From NCBI GenBank assembly GCA_022729255.1, contig JALDAG010000001.1, forward strand, positions 2,391-66,390: DNA of 64,000 nt. The letters run 5' to 3'. Numbering within the stretch: position 1 is the stretch's first letter; the number at the start of each line of letters is the position of its first letter. Positions 3,319-63,937 of this stretch are shown piece by piece. A program made the translations under genes and the position numbers. The DNA comes from Candidatus Nanohalarchaeota archaeon (lineage in GTDB: Archaea; Nanohalarchaeota; Nanosalinia; Nanosalinales; Nanoanaerosalinaceae). Below the pieces are notes generated by a model. It searched no databases and had not been told where the DNA came from. It worked only from the letters and a program-made list of their open reading frames with translations.

Positions 3319-3391
3319 AGCCCGGTGGTGTAGTGGTCAATCATACGAGGTTCTGGGCCTCGTGACTCTGGTTCGAATCCAGGCCGGGCTA
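3319..3391 (+). tRNA. tRNA-Gln (anticodon CUG), no intron, CCA not encoded
   Basis: Hand-folded. Acceptor AGCCCGG/CCGGGCT (A1:U72, A73, as typical for archaeal tRNA-Gln). Anticodon stem CGAGG/CCTCG, loop TTCTGGG. T-arm TCTGG-TTCGAAT-CCAGG. Confidence 0.9.
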
Positions 3392-8059: not shown

Positions 8060-8463
8060 CAGTAAACCACCCTCAAACTGTCATCTCCCTCGATTTCATA
8101 CTCACTTTCATCAACCCTGAAAACACCTTCAAACTCGTATTCTCCTGTACGGTGAGAACTAAAGTCATATGTAACATTTTCGCCCGTTGAAACCCCGTAA
8201 AATTCATATAGTTTATCATCAACTTCATCAATGATATATACAGAGCCTTCATATTCGCCAACTATTTCAAGGGTGACTTTGGTATTAGCAAGAACATAAT
8301 TTTCATCATACTCAATACTCCTAACAACATCAACATCATGTCTTGAGAAGAAACCCAGATATGTCACTACTCCTATGAGCAAAATACAGATAAGTGATAG
8401 AACTGCATGTGTGGACCTTCTATTTAGAAGGTCAGGTTTTTTTCGTACGTCTTTTCCTGGCAT
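8059..8463 (-). CDS. N-terminally anchored acidic protein, unknown function
   Basis: 134 aa with a basic N-terminus, the TM segment 'AVLSLICILLIGVVTYLGFF' and an acidic beta-rich ectodomain. Translationally coupled to 6800..8059. Confidence 0.55.
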   Translation of the reverse strand: MPGKDVRKKPDLLNRRSTHAVLSLICILLIGVVTYLGFFSRHDVDVVRSIEYDENYVLANTKVTLEIVGEYEGSVYIIDEVDDKLYEFYGVSTGENVTYDFSSHRTGEYEFEGVFRVDESEYEIEGDDSLRVVY

Positions 8464-8524: not shown

Positions 8525-8622
8525 CGGACCCGGAGGGATTTGAACCCTCGACCTACAGCTATCTCCTAATATGGAAAAATTGTTAGGAGGCTGTCGCTCT
8601 ATCCGGGCTGAGCTACGGGCCC
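8525..8622 (-). tRNA. tRNA-Arg (anticodon CCU) with a 23-nt intron at the canonical 37/38 position
   Basis: The reverse complement folds as GGGCCCG-TA-GCTC-AGCCCGGATA-GAGC-G-ACAGC-[CTCCTA|intron ACAATTTTTCCATATTAGGAGAT|A]-GCTGT-AGGTC-GAGGG-TTCAAAT-CCCTC-CGGGTCC-G. The intron 3' part (TAGGAG) is complementary to the anticodon-loop CTCCTA. Confidence 0.85.
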
Positions 8623-37853: not shown

Positions 37854-37960
37854 CCCTCCTTAGCTCAGTCTGGCAGAGCGTCCGCCTGTAGTTCCAGCCG
37901 GGTGCTGACCAATGGAAGCCAGTCAGCGGAATGTCCCCCGTTCAAATCGGGGAGGAGGGA
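37854..37960 (+). tRNA. tRNA-Tyr (anticodon GUA) with a 33-nt intron at 37/38
   Basis: Hand-folded: CCCTCCT-TA-GCTC-AGTCTGGCA-GAGC-G-TCCGC-[CTGTAG|33-nt intron|A]-GCGGA-ATGTC-CCCCG-TTCAAAT-CGGGG-AGGAGGG-A. The C1:G72 pair is the archaeal/eukaryal tRNA-Tyr identity feature. Confidence 0.9.
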
Positions 37961-38020: not shown

Positions 38021-38872
38021 ATGGAAATCAAAATTGGTGCTCATGTATCTATCTCAGGAGGATTCATAAAGGCTCTTGACAGAGAGGAAAAAATTGGTGG
38101 TAACTGTGGACAGGTTTTTGTTCATTCGCCCAGGGTTTGGAAATTCGGGGATCTTTCGAAAAAAGAAGCCAGGGATTTCAGAGAAGAATATAATAAAAGA
38201 GGCTGGGGACCTATACTTGTCCATTCAAACTACTTGATAAACCTTGCAACACCAAAACCTGATCTCTTTAAGAGATCCGTGGAGACACTGAAGGAAGAAT
38301 TGAGAAGGGCTGAGATGCTGGGCATGGAATATGTCGTGTTCCACCCAGGAAGCCATACGGGTTCAGGAGAAGAAAAAGGTATTAAAAGCATAGTTCAAGG
38401 CCTCAACATGGTCAGAGAAGTCATAGGGACTAATACTAAGCTTCTTCTTGAAAACACTGCAGGAAAGGGAACTTCTCTAGGAAAAAACGCTGATCAACTT
38501 TCAAAAATGTTTGAAAGATCTGAGCTTACTTTTGATGATGCGGGTGTCTGTATCGATACTTGTCATGCTTTCTCAGCTGGTTACAACATAAATACAAAAG
38601 AAGGTCTTGATGATTTTGTAGAAGAATTCGATTCAAAGATTGGTTGGGATAACATTAAAGCCATCCACCTCAATGATTCAAAGTATCCTCAAGGTTCTGA
38701 AAAGGATGAACACGCCCACATAGGTGAAGGCGAGATAGGTGAAGAAGGTATGAAAAACATAGTGAACCATCCCAAAATCAAAGAGAAACCGTTGATACTC
38801 GAGACACCTGTGGATAAAAAGAAAGGTTACAAGGAAAACATCGAAAAAGTGATGGAGCTATTGAATGACTAA
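38021..38872 (+). CDS. nfo: Endonuclease IV (AP endonuclease, Nfo)
   Basis: 'MEIKIGAHVSISGG', 'HSNYLINLA', 'VFHPGSH', 'LENTAGKG', 'CIDTCHAF', 'HLNDSK' and 'DEHAHIGEGEIG'. The track ORF start at 37931 overlaps the tRNA and is rejected. Confidence 0.9.
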   Translation: MEIKIGAHVSISGGFIKALDREEKIGGNCGQVFVHSPRVWKFGDLSKKEARDFREEYNKRGWGPILVHSNYLINLATPKPDLFKRSVETLKEELRRAEMLGMEYVVFHPGSHTGSGEEKGIKSIVQGLNMVREVIGTNTKLLLENTAGKGTSLGKNADQLSKMFERSELTFDDAGVCIDTCHAFSAGYNINTKEGLDDFVEEFDSKIGWDNIKAIHLNDSKYPQGSEKDEHAHIGEGEIGEEGMKNIVNHPKIKEKPLILETPVDKKKGYKENIEKVMELLND

Positions 38873-39102
38873 TCGAAACGTATCTCGGTTATCTCCACGT
38901 CTTTCTCCTTTGAAACTCTTTTTTTAAACTCTTCAATAGCTGATTCTTTTCCTTCAACATCTAGTAAGATAATGCCTGTTTCTCCTCCCCTGTTAAAACC
39001 TATCCTTGTTTTTATCAAACTGCCAAATCCTGTCAATACTTTTTGGAGTTTTTGAGCGTTTTTTCTCCTTTTGGAAAGTTTTAAAGCTATTATTTCCTCC
39101 AT
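38869..39102 (-). CDS. Small ACT/NikR-C-like protein, tentatively the TM1266-type 'iron-only hydrogenase system regulator' family
   Basis: 77 aa. Its size and the pattern 'KLQKVLTGFGSLIKTRIGFNRGGETGIILLDVEG...' resemble my recollection of TM1266-family sequences. It is divergent from the hydrogenase operon. Confidence 0.4.
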   Translation of the reverse strand: MEEIIALKLSKRRKNAQKLQKVLTGFGSLIKTRIGFNRGGETGIILLDVEGKESAIEEFKKRVSKEKDVEITEIRFD

Positions 39103-39181
39103 AAAAAATTTTTGATTTCAACCGTAAAAAAAATTTCTGTATGAAAAAGTATTTTTAACAGACAGACGAATTTATTTATGT

Positions 39182-39601
39182 ATGGCGATGCCTGAAGAAC
39201 CTCTCTTAAATATTTTGAAGAAAGAGCAGGAAAGACACGGATATTTATCCGATCATATATTGAAGCAGTTGAGCATTGAAATCGGTGTTCCTCTCTCAAA
39301 GCTGTATGGTATCACACAATTCTACACTATGTTGAGAACCGAACCCGTAGGAAAAAATATTATAGAGATATGTATGTCGACTTCATGTTTCTTGAACGAA
39401 AGTGAAACATTGAAAGAGTATCTTGAAAAAAAACTGGGTATAAATACGGGTGAAACCACTGAGGATGGAGAATTTTCTCTATTCAGAGTTTCATGTATCG
39501 GTTGCTGTAACGAACCACCCGCAATGCTGGTCAACGATGAACCCTACACCAAACTGACAGAAGAAAGGATAGATTTTATAATAGACGAGTTGAAAAACTG
39601 A
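39182..39601 (+). CDS. NuoE/HydC-like thioredoxin-fold [2Fe-2S] subunit
   Basis: 139 aa. Cys pattern 'CMSTSC' ... 'CIGCCNEPPAMLVND' (Cx4C...Cx3C). Its stop overlaps the next start (TGATG). Confidence 0.8.
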   Translation: MAMPEEPLLNILKKEQERHGYLSDHILKQLSIEIGVPLSKLYGITQFYTMLRTEPVGKNIIEICMSTSCFLNESETLKEYLEKKLGINTGETTEDGEFSLFRVSCIGCCNEPPAMLVNDEPYTKLTEERIDFIIDELKN

Positions 39602-40716
39602 TGCAGATCTTGAGAAAAACAAATATGGAAGCATTGAAGCTTCTAGAGGTTATGGACAGAGAAAATATTCTAAAAAAAATGGAGGAAAAGAGTCTTGTAG
39701 GGAGAGGTGGTGCAGGTTTTCCAACGGCAAAAAAATGGAAAATGGCGCTTGAACAAGACGATGATATCTATCTTGTGATAAATGCTGATGAGGGAGAACC
39801 AGGAACATTCAAGGACAAGTTTGTCCTAGAGAACAATCTAGAAACGTTCGTCGAAGGAGTCATGATAAGTTCAAAGATATTGGATGTTGAAAAAACTTAC
39901 ATATATCTCAGAGGAGAATATGAATATTTAAGACAAGATATAGAAGACACTATAGAAGAAATGAACAATAAAACTTCCAAAGAATTCGATATAACGATAG
40001 TGAGGGGAGCCGGAGCATATGTATGCGGTGAAGAAACTTCTATACTTCAATCTATCATGGGCCACAGAGGCAATTCCATGGAGAAACCTCCTTACCCAAC
40101 ACAAGAAGGTCTATGGAAAAAACCGACTGTTGTAAACAACGTTGAGACTATAACATGTGTGCCTCAACTTCTGTTGTATGATGACTGGAACCCTGATCTC
40201 AGGCTTTTCTCACTTTCTGGAAATGTTTCGAACCCTGGACTGTTTGAAGCACCGCTAGGAGTAAAAGTTTCAACGCTTATAGATCTAGCAAGACCTAAAA
40301 ATAATTTGAAAGCTATGTCTCTTGGAAACTTTGGAGGTATAATGCCTATAGAAGAAAACATGGAGATAACTCCTGAACTTATCAGCGATGAGAACTGTTT
40401 CCACGGGACTTTTTCCTTAATATGGATCGATGAAACCAACAACATTGCTGATATATGCAAGAACATCTCAGAGTTCTATACTTATGAATCATGCGGAAAG
40501 TGCACTCCATGTAGAGAAGGCTCTAAAGAAATTTTAGACCTTCTTAACAAGATATGCAGTGGTCAAGGAACCAAAAAAGATATAGAGTTACTTGAAAATA
40601 CTGCGAAACACGTCAACCAAACTAGTCTTTGTGGTCTCGGTAAAACAGTAGGTAAACATGTTTTAACAGGTCTAGAACATTTCAAAACCGATTTTATGGA
40701 GAAGGTAAATCAATGA
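39601..40716 (+). CDS. NuoF/HydB-like FMN- and NAD(H)-binding [4Fe-4S] subunit (minimal, 371 aa)
   Basis: 'GRGGAGFPTAKKW', 'NADEGEPGTFKD', 'GAGAYVCGEETSILQSIMG', 'ESCGKCTPCREG' and 'SLCGLG'. It has no extra ferredoxin-type domains. Confidence 0.85.
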   Translation: MQILRKTNMEALKLLEVMDRENILKKMEEKSLVGRGGAGFPTAKKWKMALEQDDDIYLVINADEGEPGTFKDKFVLENNLETFVEGVMISSKILDVEKTYIYLRGEYEYLRQDIEDTIEEMNNKTSKEFDITIVRGAGAYVCGEETSILQSIMGHRGNSMEKPPYPTQEGLWKKPTVVNNVETITCVPQLLLYDDWNPDLRLFSLSGNVSNPGLFEAPLGVKVSTLIDLARPKNNLKAMSLGNFGGIMPIEENMEITPELISDENCFHGTFSLIWIDETNNIADICKNISEFYTYESCGKCTPCREGSKEILDLLNKICSGQGTKKDIELLENTAKHVNQTSLCGLGKTVGKHVLTGLEHFKTDFMEKVNQ

Positions 40717-42365
40717 ATATAGAAATCGATGGGGAAGAGATAACAGCAAAAGAGGGCAGAACTATACTTGATATATGCAGGGAACACGGCAAGGAAATAC
40801 CTACGAAGTGTTATCTAAAAGACCTCCTTACAGATTCTAGGTGCAGAGTTTGTCTAGTTGAAATGAACGGTAAACTCGTTACTTCCTGCTCAAGTTATCC
40901 AAAAGAAGGTTCTAAAATATATACCGACACTGAAAAAGTTTTGAAAGCACGTGAAAAAAATCTTGAACTGATGAAACAAGAAAAGGATTCTTCTGAAGCT
41001 TACAAGCTGTTCAAAGAGGTCGGTATTGGTAACAACAGGTTCGACAAGGAAGATCACAAGTTGGAGATACTGGGACAGTCACTTCTGAGAGAGATGGATG
41101 AATGTGTTAACTGTGGTAGATGTGTGAATGTTTGCGACCAGATCCAAGGTGTAAACGCCATTGATTTTGCTGGTAGAGGCCATGAATCAAGGGTCACACC
41201 ACACAGAGAAAAGAAACTTTCCGAAGTATCGTGCATAAGATGCGGGCAGTGCATATTAAGATGCGAAGAAAACGCTCTTAAAGAGAAAAGCCACCTTGAA
41301 AAGGTGGAAGAAGCTCTTGCAGATGATACAAAGTATGTCGTAGCTCAGACAGCTCCTGCGGTAAGAGCTTCTCTTGGAGAATTATTTGATATCGAGCCAG
41401 GTAGAAATGTGGAGGGAGAAATGGTTTCTGCTTTAAGAAAAAAAGGTTTTGACAGTGTGTTTGATACTGTGTTCGGAGCTGACCTGACAATAGTGGAGGA
41501 AGCTTCGGAACTGATAGAACGAATCAAAAATAACGGTCCTTTCCCAATGATAACAAGTTGTTGTCCTGCATGGATCCTCTACATGGAACAGTTTCATCCT
41601 GAACTTATGGAAAACGTTTCAAGCTGTAAGAGCCCTCACATGATGGTAGGAGCCCTCACAAAAACATTTTTTGCGGATAAATTGGATAAAAAAAGAGATA
41701 ATATCGTAGTAGTTTCCATAATGCCCTGCACATCGAAGAAGTTCGAGGTTTCAAGAGTGGAAATGAAAGAAGACGTCGATTATGTATTAACAACAAGAGA
41801 AACAGCGAAAATGCTTAAAAAAGATTCTATAGATCTAAAAGAATTGGATACTGACTCTTTTGACAAACCTCTCGGGATTTCAACAGGTGCAGGCAAGATA
41901 TTCGGTGCAACTGGCGGTGTAATGGAAGCAGCTATTAGAACAGCTAACGATAAACTTGATGGCGGAGACATAAACTTCAGGCTTGAAGAGGTGAGGGGCG
42001 AACACGGAATAAAAAGAGGGGAGGTAGACATAGGAGATCAAAAAGTAAGGTTCATTGTAGCTCATGGAGGTAAAAACATAGAAAAAACTATAGAATTGTT
42101 GGATGATGGAGAAGAGATTCATTTCATAGAATTCATGGCCTGTCCTGGAGGATGCGTATGTGGAGGTGGTCAGCCTAAATCAGAAAATAATCTTTTCCCA
42201 GAAAGAGCTGCCGCACTGTACATAAGCGATGAAAACGCTGATTTAAGGCTTTCACACAACAACCCCGCTGTGAAAAAGGTTTATGAAGATTTTCTGGATG
42301 AGCCTCTTTCAGAAAAATCGGAAAAGTTACTTCACACGTTTTACATTAAAAGAAACAAGTTCTAA
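40713..42365 (+). CDS. hydA: [FeFe]-hydrogenase catalytic subunit HydA (2Fe-2S plus 2x4Fe-4S accessory domains, H-cluster domain and small-subunit-like tail)
   Basis: 550 aa. H-cluster motifs 'MITSCCPAW', 'IMPCTSKKFE' and 'EFMACPGGCVCGGGQP'. N-terminal 'C-x10-C-x2-C-x11-C', then 'CVNCGRCVNVC' and 'CIRCGQCILRC'. ATGA overlap with the upstream gene. Confidence 0.9.
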   Translation: MNIEIDGEEITAKEGRTILDICREHGKEIPTKCYLKDLLTDSRCRVCLVEMNGKLVTSCSSYPKEGSKIYTDTEKVLKAREKNLELMKQEKDSSEAYKLFKEVGIGNNRFDKEDHKLEILGQSLLREMDECVNCGRCVNVCDQIQGVNAIDFAGRGHESRVTPHREKKLSEVSCIRCGQCILRCEENALKEKSHLEKVEEALADDTKYVVAQTAPAVRASLGELFDIEPGRNVEGEMVSALRKKGFDSVFDTVFGADLTIVEEASELIERIKNNGPFPMITSCCPAWILYMEQFHPELMENVSSCKSPHMMVGALTKTFFADKLDKKRDNIVVVSIMPCTSKKFEVSRVEMKEDVDYVLTTRETAKMLKKDSIDLKELDTDSFDKPLGISTGAGKIFGATGGVMEAAIRTANDKLDGGDINFRLEEVRGEHGIKRGEVDIGDQKVRFIVAHGGKNIEKTIELLDDGEEIHFIEFMACPGGCVCGGGQPKSENNLFPERAAALYISDENADLRLSHNNPAVKKVYEDFLDEPLSEKSEKLLHTFYIKRNKF

Positions 42366-42976
42366 CTTCTCAAAATCAGATCATAAATATCGTCAAACCT
42401 GCTTTTTAGATTTTTAACTCTCTCAACTGCCTCTGAGTACTTCTTTTCCGAAAATTTGTCTATTATACAACACATCTCTTCTTCTAACTCATTAGAAGAT
42501 TCTTTCTCTATATCCATAACTTTCAAGTACTCATTAGCCATCCTCATCCTGGCGACAGAAAGGCTGTATTCTTTTAAATCATTAGTTTCCCTATCATCTG
42601 ATAAGCTTTCAAGGGTTTCATCGATATAATCACCTATTTTTTCAAGGTAGCCCTTTCTTCTTATAATGGCTATAGACGTTTTAGGCAGCTCAACACCCAA
42701 CTTTTTGGAGAACTTCACCGCTTTTTTTATGTCATCCTCCATCCTATAAACGTTTCCGGATAATGCGAACTTCCTTGCATTCCGCATATGGAAAGGTATT
42801 CCTCTTTCATAGGCTCTGTAAATTATCTCTTTTGTCTCTTTTTGATCCAAATCAATTTTTTCGAGGTGGTGCAGGGTTCCACTGACCCTTCCGTGTTCTG
42901 CTTCTATCTTTGCTTCATACAAAGGACCTCCTTCAAGAATGTCCTTCTCATCAAAGTAAAATTTACGGTAAAACAT
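42362..42976 (-). CDS. Hypothetical protein
   Basis: 204-aa ORF, helical and charged, with no recognisable motif. Its stop overlaps the hydA stop region (convergent). Confidence 0.5.
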   Translation of the reverse strand: MFYRKFYFDEKDILEGGPLYEAKIEAEHGRVSGTLHHLEKIDLDQKETKEIIYRAYERGIPFHMRNARKFALSGNVYRMEDDIKKAVKFSKKLGVELPKTSIAIIRRKGYLEKIGDYIDETLESLSDDRETNDLKEYSLSVARMRMANEYLKVMDIEKESSNELEEEMCCIIDKFSEKKYSEAVERVKNLKSRFDDIYDLILRS

Positions 42977-46375: not shown

Positions 46376-46493
46376 TTGCTGACGGCCAGAGCGAGGGGGC
46401 AACACCCGTACCCATCTCGAACACGGAAGTAAAGTCCCTCAGCGATCAGGTAAGTACTGCCTAATCGGCGGAAAAATCTGGACGCTGTCAGCC
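46376..46493 (+). rRNA. 5S rRNA (orphan; no 16S/23S in the window)
   Basis: '...CCCGTACCCATCTCGAACACGGAAGTAAAGTCCCTCAGCG...' matches the conserved 5S loop B/helix III core. The terminal helix GCTGACGGC/GCTGTCAGC has 9 bp with one G:U. Ends are accurate to within a few nt. Confidence 0.85.
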
Positions 46494-52913: not shown

Positions 52914-53951
52914 ATGAAAGAACTGGAGATCTTAATTGATAGGGAGAAAGGACGTCTTTTCTACAAAAATGTTTCATCAATCATATCTGAACAAAACGAT
53001 ATTCCGAATATACATCAGAGTCTGAGGAACAAGATAGGTCCAACAGCAGACCGCCTTTTCCACAAACTTTTCAAAAACATGATAAAAAAATACGGATTTC
53101 TTTACGAAGGCAGAGACGAAACTGAAGAAGATATAAGAAAAATGCTTCAAGAAATTTCCTACCTCGGTTACGGCAAACTGATGTTATCAGAATACAACGA
53201 AAAGATACTGATAAACGTTGAGAACTCTTTTGATCGATCATTCAATAAGAGATACGAAACAAGAACTATAATAGGTATACTTGAAGGCGCATTCGAAGAA
53301 TTACTGGGTAAAAAATGTTCCTGTGAACACGTGAGCTGTGAAAACGAAAAAAGCTGTGATTACGAGATAGAGATATCCGAAGAACCTGTAGAAAAGGAAA
53401 ACAATGAATCCAGTTATGGAGACTATACTAGTGTTAAAGACTTAGAAACCAGGCATCTAAGGTACAGAGATGGAGAGCTCTGGTACAAGGACACTAGAAA
53501 CATCATTTTACATGTTGATTTTATAAGCAACACCATAGAAGAACTTGGTAACCTCTTAGGTAGAGGCGCAAGAGGAATATTTTATGAAGCAAGTAAATAC
53601 GCAGCCATCAAAAGAATAAACAGTATAAAGAAATATAGGTTACTCACAACATTCAGTTTTCTATTTAGACCGTTGATCAAGAAAAACATGGAGGAAGAGT
53701 ACCTAATGAGAGGTTTTGGTAATCCCGAAGTTGAAGTTAAAAGCGATAAAATAATTCTTGATCTCGAGAACTGCCACAACTGTCACGGAATTGAATCGGA
53801 TTCAGCCATATGTTATGATATACAGGGACAAGTTGCAGGTGTTGCAGAGTCGATGATGGGCTCAAAAGTTATCTGTGAGGAAGAAAAATGTATTGCAAAA
53901 GGTGACGATTTTTGTAGATATGTCGCAAAGAAAAGAAACAGCAAATTATAA
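52914..53951 (+). CDS. Cys-rich protein with two V4R-like (4-vinyl-reductase-type) modules
   Basis: 345 aa. The first half ends 'GILEGAFEELLGKKCSCEHVSCENEKSCDYEIEI'. The C-terminus 'GQVAGVAESMMGSKVICEEEKCIAKGDDFCRYV' shows the V4R 'E..C.A.G...C.F/Y' signature. Confidence 0.6.
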   Translation: MKELEILIDREKGRLFYKNVSSIISEQNDIPNIHQSLRNKIGPTADRLFHKLFKNMIKKYGFLYEGRDETEEDIRKMLQEISYLGYGKLMLSEYNEKILINVENSFDRSFNKRYETRTIIGILEGAFEELLGKKCSCEHVSCENEKSCDYEIEISEEPVEKENNESSYGDYTSVKDLETRHLRYRDGELWYKDTRNIILHVDFISNTIEELGNLLGRGARGIFYEASKYAAIKRINSIKKYRLLTTFSFLFRPLIKKNMEEEYLMRGFGNPEVEVKSDKIILDLENCHNCHGIESDSAICYDIQGQVAGVAESMMGSKVICEEEKCIAKGDDFCRYVAKKRNSKL

Positions 53952-54322: not shown

Positions 54323-54916
54323 TCAGAAAATATCCTGATCCATCAACCAAGAATCACCTGGTTTGTCGCCAACGAAAAACCTGACTTTACAGAATTCTTC
54401 GCCCTTAGCTATACACATCAATTCTTCAGCCTGAATCGGTGCTCCTAGAATACTGTGTGCTGCTCCTGATGCGAAACCTCTCAAAAAATCGCATACAGGT
54501 TTATCTGATCTAATTTCTCCATGTTTTTCAAGAGACCATTCAGCTTCCGGGGAATAATCAACCCTTACAACAATGTTTTTAGGTGGTTCATACCTCAAAA
54601 CTTCGAATCTGCCATAACCGATCTGCTCTAAAATTTCTAATGCTTTAAGAAGCGTTTCTTTCTTACTCTCTTGTTCTGGTATCTTTTCAGCGGTTTCCCT
54701 CCCGGATTTGTACGCCTCCAGGAAAAACTTTCTTTTTCCGATGACTTCTGCAGCTTTGTCTGTTATCTCGTCGAACTGTTTTATAAAATCGATGTAGTTT
54801 TCTTTGATACTGGGAAGAAATGAAGCCGGTACAACAAGTAATCTTTCATCTCCAATATGTATCAATCCTTTATCCTCATCAAAATCAGCTAATTCTTCTA
54901 TTATCCATTCTGTCAT
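54323..54916 (-). CDS. V4R-domain protein (predicted small-molecule binding)
   Basis: 197 aa. 'CDFLRGFASGAAHSILGAPIQAEELMCIAKGEEFCKVRF' is a classic V4R C-terminus. Confidence 0.65.
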   Translation of the reverse strand: MTEWIIEELADFDEDKGLIHIGDERLLVVPASFLPSIKENYIDFIKQFDEITDKAAEVIGKRKFFLEAYKSGRETAEKIPEQESKKETLLKALEILEQIGYGRFEVLRYEPPKNIVVRVDYSPEAEWSLEKHGEIRSDKPVCDFLRGFASGAAHSILGAPIQAEELMCIAKGEEFCKVRFFVGDKPGDSWLMDQDIF

Positions 54917-57161: not shown

Positions 57162-57518
57162 ATGGCCAAGATACTGTCGATTGAGGATTCAGCTTTTGAA
57201 AGAAAAGTGATATCAAAGGTTTTAAGAGACACCAAACATGAACTTATTTTAGCAAAAAATGGTAAAGAAGGTCTAAAAAAACTTGAGGAAGAAAAACCGG
57301 ATCTTTTACTTCTAGACCTCAGGTTACCCGATATAGATGGTATAGATATATTGAAAGAAATAAAAAGCAAGGATTTAAATGTAGTTATAGTATCGATTAT
57401 CAGGGAGGAGAAAACAAAGGAAGAAACGATGAAACTTGGCGCAAAAAAATATATCAGCAAGCCAATAACAAAGGACAAACTCCTGCCTACGATCGATGAA
57501 GTACTGGGTGATCTATAA
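57162..57518 (+). CDS. Single-domain response regulator receiver (CheY-like)
   Basis: 118 aa. 'ILSIEDSAF', phospho-acceptor context 'LLLLDLRLPDIDG', 'VIVSI' and 'KKYISKP'. Confidence 0.8.
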   Translation: MAKILSIEDSAFERKVISKVLRDTKHELILAKNGKEGLKKLEEEKPDLLLLDLRLPDIDGIDILKEIKSKDLNVVIVSIIREEKTKEETMKLGAKKYISKPITKDKLLPTIDEVLGDL

Positions 57519-57877
57519 TGGATGTACTAATAACGGACGATTCGTCTTTCATGAGAAAAGTTTTACACAACATAGTAAAGGATTTAGAATTCGATGAGAT
57601 ATATGAAGCAGAGAGTGGCGAAGAGTGCATAAAGAAATTTAAAAATAAAAAACCTGTACTTGTTCTCTTAGATATAGTTATGGGAGGGATGAGCGGTCTT
57701 GAAACACTTGAAAAAATAATGGAGATTGATGAAAATCAGAGAGTTATAATGATCTCCGCTGTTGGCCAGAAAAAGATGGTTGAGGATGCCATTAACAAAG
57801 GGGCAAAAGAGTTCATAGAGAAACCATTTGACAACAAAGATGTCAAAGAGACGATTGTGAATGTTCTTTCAGGTTAA
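57518..57877 (+). CDS. cheY: Chemotaxis response regulator CheY
   Basis: 119 aa. 'VLITDDSSFMRK', 'VLLDIVMGGMSG', 'VIMISAVG' and 'EFIEKPF'. Its start overlaps the previous stop. Confidence 0.85.
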   Translation: MDVLITDDSSFMRKVLHNIVKDLEFDEIYEAESGEECIKKFKNKKPVLVLLDIVMGGMSGLETLEKIMEIDENQRVIMISAVGQKKMVEDAINKGAKEFIEKPFDNKDVKETIVNVLSG

Positions 57878-57891
57878 AAACCTGATAATTT

Positions 57892-58473
57892 TTATCTTAT
57901 ATTTCTAGCTTTCTTTGCAGCCATCTTCTTGAGTTCTTCTTCACTTATCTCTTCTACTTCCTCTTCTTTTTCATCAGAACTCATTTTATCGGTGATCTCT
58001 TTCATCTCAACAGCTTCTTCTTCACCGAAACCTTTATTCAAATCAAGTATGATTATCAATCTTTCATCGAGAACCGCCACTCCTTTCATGTAGTTAGTAT
58101 GAATTTTTTCTTCTAGAATCTTTGGCGAATCCTTTATCCTGTTTTCTTTAACTCTCATTACCTCTTCAACATCATCTACAAGCATTCCAACGGTTGTATC
58201 ATACATTTCAAGTATAACTATAAATTTAGCGTCCTTTTTAGTTAAGTTGAATTTTTCCTCTAGATCTATAACAGGTACAACTTGCCCTCTCACATTTGTT
58301 ATGCCTTTGATAAAACTAGGAACGTTGGGTAGAGGAGTGATCTTTTTCTCTTCTGATTTTGTTATCTCTTTGACATATTCTATCTCAATAGCATAGTCCT
58401 CATTAGATAGTTCAAATACGAAAAGCTGAACAGTATTGAGTGATTGTATATTATCTTTAGATTCTTGTTCCAT
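57892..58473 (-). CDS. cheW: Chemotaxis coupling protein CheW (with acidic C-terminal tail)
   Basis: 193 aa. 'LFVFELSNEDYAIEIEYVKEI', 'PNVPSFIKGITNVRGQVVPVIDL' and 'VGMLVDDVEEV'. Confidence 0.85.
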   Translation of the reverse strand: MEQESKDNIQSLNTVQLFVFELSNEDYAIEIEYVKEITKSEEKKITPLPNVPSFIKGITNVRGQVVPVIDLEEKFNLTKKDAKFIVILEMYDTTVGMLVDDVEEVMRVKENRIKDSPKILEEKIHTNYMKGVAVLDERLIIILDLNKGFGEEEAVEMKEITDKMSSDEKEEEVEEISEEELKKMAAKKARNIR

Positions 58474-58583
58474 CTACATCTTTCCTCCACTTAAAAAAAT
58501 ATTTTTTCAATGACTCGTCCCAATTAATAATTAATATAACCTAATTTAAATATTATAACAACAATCCAAAAAAGGTGTGGACA

Positions 58584-59642
58584 ATGGAACCAGAAGAACT
58601 ATCAGAACTTTCAGTTAAGGAGATTAAGGACAGTATTGGAGAAAAACCGGAAAATATCGAGGAACTGATTAAAGAAGAGGAAAAAGGGAAAAATAGAAAA
58701 AGTCTCATCACCTGGTTAAAGAGTATGGAACACGAAGGTTCAAACAAAAAAGGCAATATAAAAGGGAATGAAGAAAAAATGATTGAAGAAAAATTGGAAA
58801 ATCTTGAAGGAGAAATTGAGAATATAACTTCATATTCTTCCGAACTTACTAGGATAACAGAACAAATGGCTGGAAGAAGTCAAAACCAAGCACAAGAACT
58901 TGAACTACTTGAAGAAAATCTTACCGAGTTATCTGCTTCTGTACAAGAAGTAGCATCTAATTCTGAAGATGCCGCAACATCCATTGCATCTATAAATGAA
59001 TTCGCTCAGGAAGGAGGACGTGCTGCAGAAGAGGGAATGCAGAAAATGGTCGAGATGGAGCACTCCGTAAAAGATGCGAGAAAAGCGGTGGAGAAACTTG
59101 GTGAGAAGAGCAAAAATATAAGGGAAATCACCAAAACCATAACCGATATAGCAGAAAAAACAGATTTATTAGCTCTTAATGCAGCTATCGAAGCCGCTAG
59201 AGCTGGGGAACAGGGACGAGGGTTTGCAGTAGTTGCAGATGAAGTAAAACAACTTGCAGAAGATTCTTCGGAATCAGCGGAAATGATATCTGATATGGTC
59301 GCGGATATGGAGAAAAACATTAGCGATGTAGTTAATAAGATAGAAAAAAGTCAGCAGGATTTAGAAACAAGTTCAGGTGTTATCAGATCCGCTCTCACAG
59401 CACTGGAAGAGATTTCAAGCAACATCTCCGAATTATCCACTGAGATGCAGGAGATTTCTTCAGCATCACAGCAACAGGCATCCGGTACCACGGATATAAA
59501 AAATACTGCGGATGAAATAGCTCAGGCGGCAGAAGAACTTTCTTCAGGCATACAGGAAGTAAGTTCTACAGTGAAACAGCAAAACACAACAATCAAAGAA
59601 TTATCAGGCAGTATTGAAGATATCTCAGAAATAGTTGATTGA
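58584..59642 (+). CDS. Soluble methyl-accepting chemotaxis protein (no TM segments)
   Basis: Highly conserved signalling hairpin '[36 protein letters not shown]'. No hydrophobic helices. SD 'AGGTG' lies before the ATG at 58584 (the track ORF starts at GTG 58575). Confidence 0.85.
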
Positions 59643-59653
59643 AAGGTGAATAG

Positions 59654-60274
59654 ATGGTACACTGGATAGCAGGAAAGGTAAAACTCACTGATTTGCAGAA
59701 AGAAGGGTTAGAAGAGATAGGTAACATTGGTTCAGGACAATCAACTGATTTTCTTTCAGACATCATCAAAAGAAAGGTTGAGATAGCGACACCTGAGATG
59801 GGTGTGATACCTTTATCAGAGTCAACAAAAGAACTAAAAGAAAAATTTTATAAAAAAAATCCTGTTTTCAATGTATACGTTCCTATAACAGGTCTAAAAG
59901 GTGGAATATCTGTAATACTGGATAAAAAAGATTATATAGAACTTATAAATCTTATAGAGCATCAAATAGATGAAAAATATACGCTTATGGAGCTCTCAGA
60001 AGATATAGCTAAATGTTATCTGGAAGCTGTCAACAATTTCTTGTATAAATCCTTGGGATTTGGAAACGGTAAACTATTTTATATGCCCATAGATTCGCTT
60101 CTGGACTATCTCTCGAACAACATGGTTACAGATGAAGAAAAAAAATCCGATGCCCTAATAATAAACACTGAATTCCATATCTCTGATGAAATCAGCGGAA
60201 AAATAGTTCTTCTAATCAACATAGGTCATATCAGTGAACTTACAGATGCCCTTGACAAATTACTAAATATTTAA
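59654..60274 (+). CDS. CheC-family (CheC/CheX-like) CheY-P phosphatase homolog
   Basis: 206 aa. 'LQKEGLEEIGNIGSGQSTDFLSDII' matches the first CheC E-x2-N motif region. SD 'AGGTGA' upstream. Confidence 0.65.
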   Translation: MVHWIAGKVKLTDLQKEGLEEIGNIGSGQSTDFLSDIIKRKVEIATPEMGVIPLSESTKELKEKFYKKNPVFNVYVPITGLKGGISVILDKKDYIELINLIEHQIDEKYTLMELSEDIAKCYLEAVNNFLYKSLGFGNGKLFYMPIDSLLDYLSNNMVTDEEKKSDALIINTEFHISDEISGKIVLLINIGHISELTDALDKLLNI

Positions 60275-60729
60275 TACCTTTTCGTTTCTCCCATCGGCAT
60301 ACTCACAACCACCGTTCCGGACCAACAGTGGAACCAGATGGATCTTCCTCTGTCTCCTCCAACGTCTTCCTCAACTATATCTATCCCATATTTATCAAGC
60401 TCTTTTCTAACCGATATTATGTTCTTTTTACCTATCTCTATGGAAGATTCAAAGAGAGATGCTCCTCCAAATATCTTAGCAACTATTTCATCCATATCAC
60501 ATTTTCTCTCCTTAAAATCTTCGACCATGCATTTTATCAGATTATTGGCATATTTTAAGGAACCTTTATCCATGTTGGACGGAAGCATTACATGTCCAAG
60601 TCCTCCTAGTTCATTGTCCTTATCGTAGAGGCAGACAGCAATACAGCTCCCAATACCAAGTGATTTAAGGACCTTCTTCCCTTCACATATTTTATAATCT
60701 CCCATTTTAACGTTTAGATTAATAGCCAT
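60271..60729 (-). CDS. cheD: Chemoreceptor glutamine deamidase CheD
   Basis: 152 aa. 'LGIGSCIAVCLYD', 'GGLGHVMLP', 'KIFGGASLF' and 'DVGGDRGRS'. Confidence 0.85.
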   Translation of the reverse strand: MAINLNVKMGDYKICEGKKVLKSLGIGSCIAVCLYDKDNELGGLGHVMLPSNMDKGSLKYANNLIKCMVEDFKERKCDMDEIVAKIFGGASLFESSIEIGKKNIISVRKELDKYGIDIVEEDVGGDRGRSIWFHCWSGTVVVSMPMGETKRY

Positions 60730-60741
60730 TTATCTCATCTT

Positions 60742-61368
60742 TTAAGAAATCTCGTCTAACCTGTTTTTAAGGAACTCCTCGGATTCTGGGTGGAATAAAA
60801 ATAAAAAGTAAGCGTTTTCCTTTTCATCAAAGTTGAATCTTGTCTTGAATACCAGGGCTTCATCTCTTTCTCTTGCTATAGGAAGTATAAAGTGATCCAT
60901 CAAAGCTCCTAAGAAATCGATCTTGATATTTGGAACTTCTTCATATAGTCTAACATCTATGTATTCAGTTATAGCTGTCAAACAGCTTCCTGTTATGATG
61001 TTGCCTGTTTCTTTCAAAGCTGATTTCTCCATTTCAGATAATTCATTGCTTGATTCAGATTCTGTTAGGTATGATGAAAGGTTTTTTGCGCTTGAATAAT
61101 CTAGCATGAATACCAGTTTACCTAATTCCTTCTTTTTTTCTGAATCATTATTCTCTATCTTTACATCAAGAAAAACAGAAGCTACCAGTGTGGAACCTCC
61201 TCCGAATTTCTCACTGATATCCTTTATATCCACAAATTTTATGTACGGAAACTCGACTTCTATCCTTTTCCCGGTCATTTTCGAAAGAGCTTTTGAAGCA
61301 TTTCCTGCTCCTACATGTGAAACCTCCTTCAAAACATCTATTATTTCTTCATCGAAAATTTTAATCAC
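60742..61368 (-). CDS. cheC: CheY-P phosphatase CheC
   Basis: 208 aa. 'DVLKEVSHVGAGNASKALSKMTG' and 'SALKETGNIITGSCLTAI' (both E-x2-N motifs). Confidence 0.8.
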   Translation of the reverse strand: MIKIFDEEIIDVLKEVSHVGAGNASKALSKMTGKRIEVEFPYIKFVDIKDISEKFGGGSTLVASVFLDVKIENNDSEKKKELGKLVFMLDYSSAKNLSSYLTESESSNELSEMEKSALKETGNIITGSCLTAITEYIDVRLYEEVPNIKIDFLGALMDHFILPIARERDEALVFKTRFNFDEKENAYFLFLFHPESEEFLKNRLDEIS

Positions 61369-62950
61369 CTAGAAGAGAAGCTACATCTATAATAACAGCG
61401 GGTTTCCCATCAGAAAGAATAGAAGCCCCTGCTATACCTTTTGGTTTTCCTACACCTATATCCTTAATAACAAAGTCCTGAACTTCTTTTATCTCATCCA
61501 CTATAAACCCTGCTTTCTCACCTCCACTCTTCACTACAACTACTGTATACTTGTCATCCTCCATTTCAAAGTCAGAATCGTATTCAAGTGCATCAGCCAA
61601 ATTTATTAGAGGAATTTCGACACCGTTAAATATGAACACTTTTTGACTCTCTAGTTCGTTCACTTCATCACTATACACATATATACATCTTTCTATCGAG
61701 TTCAGAGGAATAGCTAATCTATGTATACCTATCCTGATCAAGAAACATCTTACAACTGCCAATGATAATGGAAGTTCCATTATTATCTCTGTTCCTTCCT
61801 CCAATTCAGTATCAATTTTATATAATCCATGTAGAGAATTTGCTGTTTCTTTTACGACGTTTAGACCAACACCTCTTCCAGATACCTGTGTAACCTCTTT
61901 ATTCGTAGAGAAACTTGAATCAAATAGTAGATCTAGTATATCATCTTCCTTCATATCCTTAAGCTCTTCTCTTGTTATAACATTTCTTTCCAGTGCAGTT
62001 TCTTTAATATCTTCTACATCTATACCTCTACCATCATCCTTTACAGATATAACAGCAAGATTTCTTTCTCTTTTAGCCTCAAGTATTATTTTTCCTTTCT
62101 CTGATTTTCCTTTTTCCTTTCTCTTCTCAGGAGACTCTATTCCATGATCGATGGCGTTCCTCAACATATGTATGATTGGTTCACCGATATAATCCAGTAT
62201 GGTTCTATCAAGTCTAAGATCGCTTCCTCTGATTTCGAAATCTATTTGTTTATCAAGAGATTTTGCGGTATCCCTCACCAATCTTGGGAACCTTTCAAAT
62301 ACTTGTGAAACAGGTATCATCCTAGCCCTTGATATCTCGTGTTGTATATCCTCTCCAAGCCTTTTCAGCTGATTCATAGTAGATTCTATTTCTTCCGAAT
62401 CTACAGATTCCAAAAGCCCTCTTAGTTTCTTTTCTGTAATCATCAATTCTCCTACAGAATTCATCAAATCATCCAATCTATCAACATCGACTTTTATCTC
62501 TTCTACTTTTTCCGCTTTTTCCGGAGAAGCAGCAAGTTCTTCTCCTTGAACATCTTTGAACTCTTCTCCTTTTTTAGCTCTTTCAAGATTATCAAGAAGT
62601 TCAGATACGTCTTTTTCAGGGTCTTTTCTCGTTTCTTCAACTTCTTCAACCATCTCTCCAAGTGCATCTATGCTTTGAAGAAGAAGATCGATAAGTTTTC
62701 CATCCATCTCTATCTCTTTCTTCTTCATAAGATCGAAGATATCCTCTATAGAATGAGCAAGATCGGATATATCATCTAAACCCATGCCGGCTGCAGAACC
62801 CTTTATAGTGTGAGCAGCCCTAAATAAATCGTCTAATGTATCCTCATCCCTTGTATCCTCAAATTCAAGTATATCATCGCTCAATACCTTGAGATTCTCT
62901 TTTGCCTCATCCAAAAAAGTCCCCAAAAACTCCTTGCTTTCTTCTTGCAT
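61361..62950 (-). CDS. cheA: Chemotaxis histidine kinase CheA (short form, apparently without a P2 domain)
   Basis: 529 aa. HPt 'FRAAHTIKGSAAGMG', dimerisation 'VDVDRLDDLMNSVGELMI', 'HMLRNAIDHGIE', 'DDGRGID', 'GRGVGLNVV' and a CheW-like C-terminus. Confidence 0.9.
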   Translation of the reverse strand: MQEESKEFLGTFLDEAKENLKVLSDDILEFEDTRDEDTLDDLFRAAHTIKGSAAGMGLDDISDLAHSIEDIFDLMKKKEIEMDGKLIDLLLQSIDALGEMVEEVEETRKDPEKDVSELLDNLERAKKGEEFKDVQGEELAASPEKAEKVEEIKVDVDRLDDLMNSVGELMITEKKLRGLLESVDSEEIESTMNQLKRLGEDIQHEISRARMIPVSQVFERFPRLVRDTAKSLDKQIDFEIRGSDLRLDRTILDYIGEPIIHMLRNAIDHGIESPEKRKEKGKSEKGKIILEAKRERNLAVISVKDDGRGIDVEDIKETALERNVITREELKDMKEDDILDLLFDSSFSTNKEVTQVSGRGVGLNVVKETANSLHGLYKIDTELEEGTEIIMELPLSLAVVRCFLIRIGIHRLAIPLNSIERCIYVYSDEVNELESQKVFIFNGVEIPLINLADALEYDSDFEMEDDKYTVVVVKSGGEKAGFIVDEIKEVQDFVIKDIGVGKPKGIAGASILSDGKPAVIIDVASLLGD

Positions 62951-62956
62951 TATTAC

Positions 62957-63937
62957 TCACTCAAAAATTTCTCTTAACAGTTCGATTATACTTTCCACAT
63001 CAATAATATAATCGGCATCGTCCTGCTCTATAATATATTGACCTATACCAAATATTAAACTTGTGGATTCATCCTCTACGATAACATTTCCTCCTCTGGA
63101 TTTCACAAACCTTGCACCTATAACACCGTCCTTTCCCATGCCAGAAAAAACTATCGACAGAACATTCTCTCCAAATATTTCGGAACATGTCCGGAAAAGC
63201 CTGTCTATACTAGGAGAATCTTTCTTTTCTGATTGTTTTTCAACAATATAAACTTCGTCCTCTTGTTCCTCAAATATATTGTCCTGATTCCCTGAACATA
63301 TGTATATAGAGTTATCCAGTTTTGTTTTACCGATAACATACTTCACTTCCTTTTCAAGAAGTGTGTTCAGTCTGTCAGCGAACAATGAGGAGAATCCTGG
63401 CGACATGTGTATACAGATCACCACAGGTATATTGATCTCTTCATCCAAGTTTTTAAGAACACTTTCAATATCGGAGGAAGAACCTGTGGAACCTGCCAAA
63501 AGGACAATATCTTTTTCTTTTTTTATATCTATATCGTTTCTCTGATTTGAAACGCCACCAGATTTTTTGCTCTTGGAAAAAGCAGCTTTTATTATGTTAA
63601 CTAACTTTTCATCATCCATATCAAGACCTATTACATCAAATGCATCGTAAGAAAATGAACTAACAGCTTCTTCTCTTCCATGTCGAGATCCATCATAAAC
63701 CATTATCACTTCAACATCATATTTTTCCTTCAATAAGTACAATATATCCAACCCAGATATTTCATCGAAAAAAACCGAAAGAACAACCACCTTAACGTTT
63801 TCAAGATTGACATGTGAAAAAATCAGTGAGCCATTACCCACTAATTTAACTGTTTTATCACCCATCTCTTTGTTTATTATATCCATCAGTTCATTTCTGA
63901 CCATGAAGTTCGGGTGAGCGATCAGTATATCGGTCAT
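62957..63937 (-). CDS. cheB: Chemotaxis methylesterase CheB with a degenerate N-terminal receiver
   Basis: 326 aa. C-terminal esterase motifs 'LLAGSTGSSS', 'ICIHMSPGFSSLFADRLN' and 'FSGMGKDGV...VIVEDESTSLIFGI'. The N-terminal REC-like region lacks the acidic residues (see findings). Confidence 0.8.
   Translation of the reverse strand: MTDILIAHPNFMVRNELMDIINKEMGDKTVKLVGNGSLIFSHVNLENVKVVVLSVFFDEISGLDILYLLKEKYDVEVIMVYDGSRHGREEAVSSFSYDAFDVIGLDMDDEKLVNIIKAAFSKSKKSGGVSNQRNDIDIKKEKDIVLLAGSTGSSSDIESVLKNLDEEINIPVVICIHMSPGFSSLFADRLNTLLEKEVKYVIGKTKLDNSIYICSGNQDNIFEEQEDEVYIVEKQSEKKDSPSIDRLFRTCSEIFGENVLSIVFSGMGKDGVIGARFVKSRGGNVIVEDESTSLIFGIGQYIIEQDDADYIIDVESIIELLREIFE

Follow-up and report, generated by a model that had tools for sequence, protein, structure and literature searches.

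The 64,000-nucleotide stretch of DNA analysed here, hereafter the window (positions 2,391 to 66,390 of contig JALDAG010000001.1, from a Candidatus Nanohalarchaeota archaeon), carries a three-gene operon, hydC-hydB-hydA, encoding the subunits of an [FeFe]-hydrogenase. Sequence features and analogy with characterised relatives indicate that the enzyme is probably a ferredoxin-independent, non-bifurcating NADH:H+ oxidoreductase, which would operate as a single αβγ protomer holding about 22 Fe. A part for ferredoxin is improbable, because the N-terminal [2Fe-2S] cluster of HydB, its two C-terminal [4Fe-4S] clusters, the putative zinc (Zn)-hinge ligands and the residues specific to the Bfu family of bifurcating enzymes are all missing.

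The three structural genes are co-oriented and overlapping, and together encode 1060 amino acids (aa). Their junctions read 'cTGATGc' (hydC/hydB, a 1-nt overlap) and 'caATGAat' (hydB/hydA, a 4-nt overlap), in agreement with the translational coupling of hydA to a NuoE-like and a NuoF-like gene claimed in an earlier annotation made from the sequence alone (the first-pass annotation). The adjacent hydC-hydB-hydA order is also the one that HydDB takes, operationally, to denote group A3. The features of the locus, in window coordinates, are as follows.

38869-39102, minus strand: 77-aa open reading frame (ORF) divergent from hydC, a predicted divergent member of the TM1266/CPF_0552 (ACT-like) superfamily
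39103-39181, no strand: divergent intergenic region of 79 bp with a conserved A/T-rich TATA-like box, from the alignment of related loci
39182-39601, plus strand: hydC, 139 aa, NuoE-like thioredoxin-fold [2Fe-2S] subunit (PF01257)
39601-40716, plus strand: hydB, 371 aa, core-only NuoF-like flavin mononucleotide (FMN)/NADH subunit with one N3-type [4Fe-4S] cluster (PF01512 and PF10589)
40713-42365, plus strand: hydA, 550 aa, predicted catalytic [FeFe]-hydrogenase subunit (PF02906, Fe_hyd_SSU, Fer2_4 and 4Fe-4S dicluster models)
42362-42976, minus strand: 204-aa ORF convergent with hydA and overlapping its stop codon, with no significant family match

The NuoF-like subunit and the markers of bifurcation

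HydC matches PF01257 (E=6.2e-43) and presents Cys 64, 69, 105 and 109 in a Cx4C...CxxxC pattern. HydB is composed of a Nuo51 FMN domain (PF01512, E=5.4e-40) and a NuoF 4Fe-4S domain (PF10589, E=1.7e-28), and the domain search returned no Fer4 or 2Fe-2S (ferredoxin-type) domain in it, so that the first-pass description of a 371-aa core without the additional ferredoxin-type domains stands. The motifs GRGGAGF, ADEGEPGTFKD and GAGAYVCGEE are all present, as are the N3-type ligands C298, C301, C304 and C344, which account for four of the nine Cys residues; no FeS site beyond these four was found. The HydBC pair of the window would thus hold two FeS clusters, as against the six of the BfuBC core.

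Two published sets of markers separate bifurcating from non-bifurcating enzymes. Bifurcating HydB is distinguished by extra FeS domains, A/E232, M234, F367 and a GGPSG motif, and the non-bifurcating state by T/S, K/S/A and Y at these positions and no GGPSG (Losey 2020), while membership of the Bfu family is set by Bfu-specific residues and a BfuBC core that contains FMN and six FeS clusters (five in HydB, which includes a ferredoxin-type 4Fe-4S domain, and one in HydC), clusters and residues that the Syntrophomonas wolfei enzyme and complex I do not possess (Schut 2022). The solved bifurcating enzymes read PGAFMD, GAGAFVCGEE and GGPSGG, and the Thermotoga maritima numbering matches. The window HydB instead carries T69 and K71 where the bifurcating enzymes have A232 and M234, and Y140 where they have F367 (T. 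maritima numbering), and GGPSG is absent from it. It is therefore in the non-bifurcating state for every item of Losey 2020, and for those items of Schut 2022 that were tested (two of three marker residues). The simpler NAD(P)H-coupled enzyme that the first-pass annotation had proposed from the core-only HydB is well supported, as the tested bifurcation markers all point that way. The same state prevails among the 120 best listed homologs of HydB, all of which are 355-410 aa long; T/K is found in 118, Y in 105 and GGPSG in none.

A contrast was also drawn across 82 loci from named genomes, the alignment-based scan of contigs being a sample rather than a census; a scan of genome contigs with HydA alone gave no match, so that the species of the window is apparently not among the GTDB species representatives. 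The four archaeal loci encode a HydA without the His-ligated cluster described below and the roughly 70 bacterial loci a HydA with it, and their HydB subunits differ as follows.

HydB length: 370-372 aa in the four archaeal loci; about 590-660 aa in the roughly 70 full-length bacterial loci
N- and C-terminal extensions of HydB: none in the four archaeal loci; about 130-230 aa and about 70 aa, respectively, in the roughly 70 bacterial loci
NADH/FMN-site residues: complex-I-like in the archaeal loci where readable (T/K in three, Y in two); A/M and F in the bacterial loci (one locus each unreadable)
GGPSG: absent in the four archaeal loci; present in the roughly 70 bacterial loci

Relative to 64 bifurcating HydB proteins, the window HydB has neither the N- nor the C-terminal extension. 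The bifurcating proteins bear conserved Cys/His residues at positions equivalent to 247, 281 and 368 of the window protein and two further Cys just past its C-terminus, and in the short family the equivalent positions are occupied by I, N/D or Y/K, or are absent. The replaced columns are probably the ligands of the Zn-hinge, a site made up of one His and three Cys that links the four-helix bundle to the mobile C-terminal domain of bifurcating HydB.

An AlphaFold2 model of HydB (predicted local distance difference test, pLDDT, 86.9; predicted template-modelling score, pTM, 0.87) gives template-modelling (TM) scores, normalised to the target, of 0.74-0.78 against NuoF, where the whole fold is matched, and of 0.53-0.62 against bifurcating HydB, where only the core is matched. 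Normalised to the query, the scores are 0.82-0.88 for both complex-I NuoF and the bifurcating HydB core, and the fold itself is non-discriminating.

The catalytic subunit and the predicted electron path

HydA matches Fe_hyd_lg_C (PF02906, E=2e-91), Fe_hyd_SSU (E=3.9e-20), an N-terminal Fer2_4 and 4Fe-4S dicluster models, and scores 475.8 bits against the NCBIfam model '[FeFe] hydrogenase, group A' (TIGR02512), above the cutoff of 405.95. The three H-cluster signatures reported in the first-pass annotation are in place (TSCCPAW, MPCTSKKFE and EFMACPGGCVCGGGQP), as is the cluster set it had described, consisting of an N-terminal [2Fe-2S] cluster, a pair of [4Fe-4S] clusters and the H-cluster domain, to which a small-subunit-like tail is fused. 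None of the 120 homologs departs from the H-cluster Cys residues C284, C339, C477 and C481, and equally invariant are the FeS ligands C33/44/47/59, C131/134/137/141 and C174/177/180/184. Also invariant in these homologs are C283, E263, E266, R270 and S303, a putative proton relay mapped by motif position, rather than by alignment to CpI, from C299, E279, E282, R286 and S319, which we take to be the proton-transfer residues of CpI and which set catalytic enzymes apart from Nar1/NARF. The stretch from E263 to C283 is nearly identical to the aligned segment of Thermoanaerobacter kivui HydA1. Since the group A cutoff is passed and both the cluster ligands and the mapped proton relay are invariant, a Nar1/NARF-like identity, the non-catalytic homolog against which the first-pass annotation had advised a profile check, is ruled out; HydA is by these features a group A [FeFe]-hydrogenase, predicted to be catalytic.

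The closest solved relatives of HydA are T. kivui HydA1 (8A6T_A, 508 bits, aligned end to end) and Acetobacterium woodii HydA1. Among the specific NCBIfam models the best is 'NADH-dependent [FeFe] hydrogenase, group A6' (NF040763, 678 bits for a cutoff of 765), with the clostridial ferredoxin hydrogenase model behind it at 520 bits, and NCBI names some relatives at 53-54% identity as group A6 NADH-dependent enzymes.

A feature beyond those of the first-pass annotation is that the HxxxCxxCx5C motif of a His-ligated [4Fe-4S] cluster is absent from the window HydA and from all 120 of its closest homologs. The motif is seen in T. kivui in the alignment, and only 3 of 78 bacterial bifurcating-type loci lack it. 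In T. maritima HydABC the His-ligated cluster lies outside the chain that joins the H-cluster and FMN, at the interface of two protomers and 9.0 Å from its mate, and the equivalent cluster in CpI is the proposed ferredoxin-docking cluster. Its removal from the T. kivui enzyme (C99G/C102G/C108G) yields a monomeric protomer with undisturbed activity.

In the proposed mechanism, NADH would bind at the FMN of the core-only HydB and electrons would pass along a linear chain from FMN to the N3-type [4Fe-4S] cluster of HydB, the N-terminal [2Fe-2S] cluster of HydA, the two HydA [4Fe-4S] clusters and finally the H-cluster, where protons would be converted to H2; the reverse reaction may also run. The [2Fe-2S] cluster of HydC would sit beside the FMN, like N1a of complex I. 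Evolution of H2 from NADH would require a very low H2 partial pressure, provided by an H2-consuming host or neighbour, or the enzyme might run in the alternative direction, taking up H2 to make NADH.

Hyd1ABC of S. wolfei, a 115-kDa heterotrimer with a 407-aa HydB, oxidises NADH and reduces NAD+ without ferredoxin. By its published description it shares with the window enzyme, likewise a predicted heterotrimer, a core-only HydB, in which both the [2Fe-2S] domain at the N-terminus and the [4Fe-4S] domain at the C-terminus are missing, complex-I-like NADH/FMN residues, the absence of GGPSG and a separate NuoE-like HydC. It differs in its iron content, predicted at about 30 Fe including five [4Fe-4S] clusters, whereas the window proteins have ligands for about 22 Fe because the window HydA also lacks the His-ligated cluster, and in that HydEFG are encoded next to the operon in S. 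wolfei and not at the window locus. Non-bifurcating behaviour in vitro is likewise seen in a fungal Hyd+NuoEF complex whose NuoF is of the core type.

The bacterial bifurcating HydABC/Bfu enzymes of T. maritima, A. woodii and T. kivui (Furlan 2022; Katsyv 2023; Schut 2022) are built from three homologous subunits and share the core chain between the H-cluster and FMN, but their HydB is of about 590-660 aa, and the window enzyme lacks the HydB clusters B1, B3 and B4 (Furlan numbering), the probable Zn-hinge ligands, the His-ligated cluster of HydA and the Bfu residues. In T. kivui, removal of the HydB N-terminal cluster lowers bifurcation about tenfold, and deletion of HydB's C-terminal domain leaves only low bifurcation activity. 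By analogy, the window enzyme may be regarded as in effect a natural combination of three T. kivui deletions, those of the His-ligated cluster, the HydB N-terminal cluster and the HydB C-terminal domain.

A ferredoxin-independent enzyme of this kind, working from NADH to H2 only at very low H2, would tie archaea with reduced genomes thermodynamically to H2-consuming hosts or neighbours, and a non-bifurcating reading would alter the redox-balance models of these archaea. With its small overall size, this minimal HydABC would also be a handy test case for the requirements of bifurcation and for HydEFG-independent maturation.

Several points weigh against assigning the enzyme to this ferredoxin-independent type. 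Cys and His residues outside the N3-type site are conserved in the short HydB family (C266 and H268 in 120 of 120 proteins, H337 in 119, H353 in 116 and C186 in 107), where bifurcating HydB and Aquifex NuoF have non-ligand residues, and these five positions could form an unrecognised cofactor, metal or partner site. The score of HydA against the group A6 model falls below that model's cutoff. The markers of Losey and Schut are correlative and derive from a handful of characterised enzymes, all assayed HydABC enzymes appear to be non-archaeal, so that the argument would proceed by analogy, and the S. wolfei and Syntrophus aciditrophicus enzymes were compared by published description rather than by alignment. 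The genome evidence on maturases, ferredoxins and Rnf is that of the 64-kb window. Published work moreover models DPANN HydABC as bifurcating, in fermenters that yield NADH and reduced ferredoxin (Huang 2021; Greening 2024), and such fermenters need a sink for ferredoxin.

The published model supposes an electron-bifurcating or confurcating group A3 HydABC, in which NADH and reduced ferredoxin are oxidised together to yield H2. It draws on the hydC-hydB-hydA organisation used as a criterion by HydDB, on the assignment of the DPANN enzymes and the modelling of a HydABC trimer by Huang 2021 and Greening 2024, on the bifurcating nature of the closest solved relatives of HydA, on the retention of a HydC with the C1 cluster implicated in bifurcation, and on the production of reduced ferredoxin by fermentative DPANN archaea via pyruvate:ferredoxin oxidoreductase. 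It is nonetheless unlikely for the window enzyme: HydBC would hold two of the six FeS clusters of the Bfu core, the tested Bfu-specific residues are in the non-bifurcating state, the HydB C-terminal domain, which is the proposed ferredoxin site and whose deletion in T. kivui leaves only low bifurcation, is absent, and the published A3 label is based on gene organisation and not on HydB content. There is a smaller chance that the same minimal non-bifurcating build is specific for NADPH or another nucleotide, or is dedicated to H2 uptake for biosynthetic reductant. Nucleotide specificity varies in the family, NADP+ being used by T. kivui HydABC, the reaction of the S. wolfei enzyme is reversible, and a glutamate dehydrogenase using NAD(P)H is encoded 5 kb downstream of the operon in all three related genomes; the NADH-site residues, however, match those of complex-I NuoF, an NADH user.

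More improbable still is that the protein never matures to a holo-hydrogenase, for want of HydE, HydF and HydG, and is a relic or serves only as an FeS/flavin NADH oxidoreductase. As the first-pass annotation had stated, the HydCBA cassette has no adjoining HydEFG maturase genes, and no radical-SAM or HydF-like candidate was found in the 64-kb window; radical-SAM genes near relatives, considered as HydE or HydG, are in fact an HpnJ-like B12 radical SAM gene and Elp3, and most archaeal genomes with [FeFe]-hydrogenases have no maturases. Against this, the maturase search covered 64 kb of the genome, the invariance of the H-cluster ligands and the mapped proton relay in 120 homologs, with a ratio of nonsynonymous to synonymous substitution rates (dN/dS) of 0.09, points to selection on catalysis, and archaeal enzymes from maturase-less genomes are active when given the cofactor, an alternative maturation route having been proposed (Greening 2024).

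A broader and rather doubtful proposal, going beyond the NADH:H+ oxidoreductase favoured here, is that the DPANN cassette represents a distinct and mis-annotated subclass of [FeFe]-hydrogenases, characterised by a core-only HydB, the lack of the His-ligated cluster, a HydB Cys/His metal site and HydEFG-free maturation, and forming the most reduced NADH:H2 oxidoreductase known. Were this so, maturation might be aided by lineage-specific companion proteins (here the TM1266-like protein, in most lineages a membrane protein of about 175 aa), the metabolic models that give DPANN archaea a bifurcating hydrogenase would be wrong, and the cells would have to rely on partners that scavenge H2 or on an Rnf-type connection leading from ferredoxin to NADH, or would draw their NADH from H2.

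Distribution among DPANN archaea and residence in the contig

The layout of hydC, a hydB of about 370 aa and hydA is very common and standard in DPANN archaea, and is already published. HydA relatives at about 50-55% identity are many and are labelled Woesearchaeota, Pacearchaeota, Nanoarchaeota and Micrarchaeota, and the same order, with a hydB product of 370-372 aa, occurs in a 1-Mb Woesearchaeota genome, a Micrarchaeia contig, another member of the Woesearchaeota and a member of the Aenigmarchaeota. Trimeric DPANN HydABC was described by Huang 2021 (Nat Commun), with Micrarchaeota, Aenigmarchaeota and Nanohaloarchaeota in one HydA clade, and Greening 2024 (Cell) reported 'group A3' HydABC, labelled electron-bifurcating, in at least six DPANN phyla, found all three maturases in only 5 of 130 archaeal hydrogenase genomes and proposed an alternative maturation pathway. 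The archaeal host, the missing maturases and the NuoF-core HydB, which the first-pass annotation had presented as unusual, are accordingly the published DPANN norm (Huang 2021; Greening 2024). The window locus adds a Nanohaloarchaeota-related lineage to the DPANN archaea with trimeric [FeFe]-hydrogenases, and its interest beyond the routine lies in a functional reading at odds with the label in the DPANN literature, in the co-varying loss of the His-ligated cluster and in the unexplained set of Cys/His residues in HydB.

The published type, represented here by loci L010 (Woesearchaeota), L011 (Micrarchaeia), L012 and L033 (Aenigmarchaeota), agrees with the window in gene order, in a hydB product of about 370 aa and a hydA product of about 555 aa, in identity to the window proteins (50-55% for HydA, 55-62% for HydB) and in having no nearby maturases. 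It differs in that the window lineage forms a long-branched subclade, with HydA relatives at 63-85% identity that are metagenome-assembled genomes (MAGs), in that the published bifurcating label is unsupported by the content of the window HydB, and in its companion gene, discussed below. The subclade was seen in a neighbour-joining distance tree of HydA without support values, used only for the separation of clades and not for the direction of transfer. In this tree the HydA proteins without the His-ligated cluster fall outside the classical bacterial bifurcating group, and all but the one from Aenigmarchaeota form a single clade.

The term 'bacterial-style', applied to the operon in the first-pass annotation, is imprecise: HydA and HydB both differ from those of the classical bacterial bifurcating operon, and the cassette lies in a separate clade of the distance tree. 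It does occur in bacterial-labelled loci. One such locus, L092 (ENA ERZ23498665 scaffold_14, 193.6 kb; NCBI label Desulfuromonadales; ENA, European Nucleotide Archive), carries a short-HydB cassette among genes for EF-Ts and LptF/LptG, with a HydA without the His-ligated cluster and a HydB in a mixed state (PGAFKD). Since this clade member lies among bacterial genes, the cassette would have crossed domains, and the locus suggests transfer between archaea and bacteria, with no direction assigned.

The operon is a resident and native part of the archaeal genome, vertically maintained and not an assembly artefact. An independently assembled ENA contig (ERZ27266011) agrees with the window at 99.92% over 20,963 bp and spans both operon borders, and two Logan assemblies, SRR9330143 (L002) and SRR9330139 (L003), agree at 99.98% and 99.93% over about 8.5 kb and run unbroken from tRNA-Tyr via the operon to 5S rRNA; Logan SRR9330141 is also among the independently assembled contigs that carry the operon and span its borders, the identities of the set being 99.9-100%. 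A sister species at 84% nucleotide identity, with a HydA 85% identical, is colinear with the window over 20.9 kb, its genes running in the order ProRS, proteasome, aCPSF1, ArgRS, SepF, Nfo, the small divergent gene of 77 aa, hydC, hydB and hydA and continuing through EF-2. A further relative, with a HydA 68% identical, retains hydCBA together with the genes that flank it, apart from a single local rearrangement (uppS). In the comparison with the 85% relative, the 77-aa gene has a dN/dS of 0.053, hydC of 0.054, hydB of 0.067 and hydA of 0.092, beside 0.07 for nfo and 0.03 for sepF among the housekeeping neighbours, and dS values are similar (about 0.9-1.1 for the operon genes, matching about 0.8 for neighbouring nfo). 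The short HydB is native, because its 371 aa recur in the window, in the independent assemblies and in the 85% and 68% relatives, because the listed homologs are of like length, and because dN/dS is low; the truncation by sequencing error that the first-pass annotation had named as a test of its own claim does not apply.

A chimeric assembly, or an archaeal contig into which bacterial contamination had been inserted, could be entertained since some members of the clade are labelled bacterial and L092, with its EF-Ts and LptFG neighbours, places the cassette in bacteria. Its probability is vanishingly small, for both borders, where the first-pass annotation had taken a discontinuity as the sign of a chimera, are crossed at 99.9-100% identity by three more assemblies made from other sets of reads, the operon sits at the same archaeal site in two sister species that have diverged, GC is uniform and the dS of the operon genes is like that of nfo. 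The GC content of the operon (0.35-0.42) lies within the range of the window (0.32-0.44), consistent with the lack of a compositional break noted at first. The flanks are archaeal, as had also been recognised: the neighbours include aCPSF1, SepF, proteasome, EF-2, EF-1alpha and intron-bearing tRNAs, and 909 nt upstream there is a tRNA gene that contains an intron and has a GUA anticodon (37854-37960, plus strand; Rfam 50.1 bits, missed by ARAGORN).

The host is assigned, from its protein sequences, to a Nanohaloarchaeota-related DPANN lineage. The window EF-2 is nearest, at 76-78% identity, to MAGs labelled Nanohaloarchaea or Nanohaloarchaeota, with Nanohalobium at 62-63% and Aenigmarchaeota at 59-60%. 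The median predicted isoelectric point of 5.4 is only moderately acidic.

Companion genes and other features of the window

The protein of 77 aa divergent from hydC was likened to TM1266 in the first-pass annotation, a likeness borne out by profile comparison. It scores below the cutoff of every relevant model, with 61.5 for NF052672 CPF_0552_fam (cutoff 85), 22.2 for TIGR03959 TM1266 (60.8) and 21.2 for PF21699 (27), but a profile of 12 members of its family finds a single structure match, 2NZC (TM1266; E=5.6e-8, residues 5-76), the next being at E=0.06. By this profile homology the protein is a divergent member of the TM1266 superfamily. In a set of 1.84 billion representatives only 37 relatives reach E<=1e-3. 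Purifying selection acts on the gene (dN/dS 0.053), which keeps its divergent position beside hydC in three related genomes, including one with a changed flanking gene. It resembles TM1266 (2NZC)/TIGR03959/CPF_0552 in length, full-length profile homology, a conserved LQKxLTxxGxxIKTRxG core and association with [FeFe]-hydrogenase, and differs in being linked to the structural hydCBA genes in a window that has no maturase genes. In bacteria, TM1266 genes are neighbours of hydE, hydF and hydG. Near the 82 other hyd loci a single marginal TM1266-like match was found (L044, E=0.002), so that the cassette is not generally accompanied by this gene; it is a lineage-specific companion whose role may be either regulatory or in maturation, the name 'regulator' being only putative for the TM1266 family.

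Between this gene and hydC, at 39143-39159, lies a TATA-like box rich in A/T, GAAAAAGTATTTTTAAC, positioned 23-39 nt upstream of the ATG of hydC. It is kept in the three related loci, and is conserved even in the 68% relative, where the intergenic spacer is 40 nt shorter; it is plausibly an archaeal promoter element. A scan for sigma-70 promoters and terminators, with a bacterial model that is not applicable to archaea, returned chance levels (10 against 9.7 expected, and 4 against 2.9).

Elsewhere in the DPANN type the short-HydB cassette is accompanied by a multi-pass membrane protein of about 175 aa, all on the minus strand: L010 5857-6399, L011 3882-4400, L012 about 30-557, L092 10685-11227 and L093 6764-7303. 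These proteins, from Woesearchaeota, Micrarchaeia and two bacterial-labelled loci, are 43-53% identical between loci, have no Pfam or NCBIfam match and are probably the 'hyd6TM' of Greening 2024. No homolog was found in the window by tblastn, where the TM1266-superfamily gene takes its position. The 180- and 172-aa genes divergent from hydC in Woesearchaeota and Micrarchaeia had been considered as two-domain versions of the 77-aa gene, a proposal that was rejected: there is no similarity and no NCBIfam match, and the product is a multi-pass membrane protein.

The 85% relative has the 204-aa ORF downstream of hydA (dN/dS 0.17) but the 68% relative does not, so that this ORF does not belong to the hydrogenase system. 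In the 68% relative (L007), a 292-aa ORF is missing as well, and the uppS prenyltransferase gene (7389-8427) lies between nfo and the small TM1266-like gene and not downstream of hydA, hydCBA and the small gene remaining together despite the rearrangement.

A stand-alone 5S rRNA gene is found at 46378-46493 (plus strand, 74.4 bits). The L002 and L003 assemblies end inside the 5S gene and start at or within the tRNA-Tyr gene; perhaps these conserved RNA genes are what breaks the Logan assemblies. Rfam finds two long tRNA genes, at 8525-8622 (minus strand, 98 nt) and 37854-37960 (plus strand, 107 nt), both missed by ARAGORN in its bacterial setting, which reports only a tRNA-Gln at 3319-3391. 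The anticodon loop of the second carries an insert of 36 nt, and the first, long enough for an intron, is a candidate for one.

Several EF-2 homologs from related Nanohaloarchaeota MAGs (among P0255, P0293, P0303, P0342 and P0343) are of about 1180-1270 aa and carry additional PF14528 and PF14890 matches, which we take to be intein or homing-endonuclease domains; the window EF-2, at 730 aa, has no such insert. A chemotaxis cluster at 57162-63937 encodes two CheY-like receivers, CheW, a protein with a methyl-accepting chemotaxis protein signalling domain, CheC, CheD, CheA and CheB, and is unusual in a DPANN-type archaeon with a reduced genome. Finally, V4R-type domain proteins are encoded at 52914-53951 (plus strand) and 54323-54916 (minus strand), one of them similar to the C-terminal portion of MsvR, a redox-sensing regulator (E=2.4e-9, well short of the cutoff).

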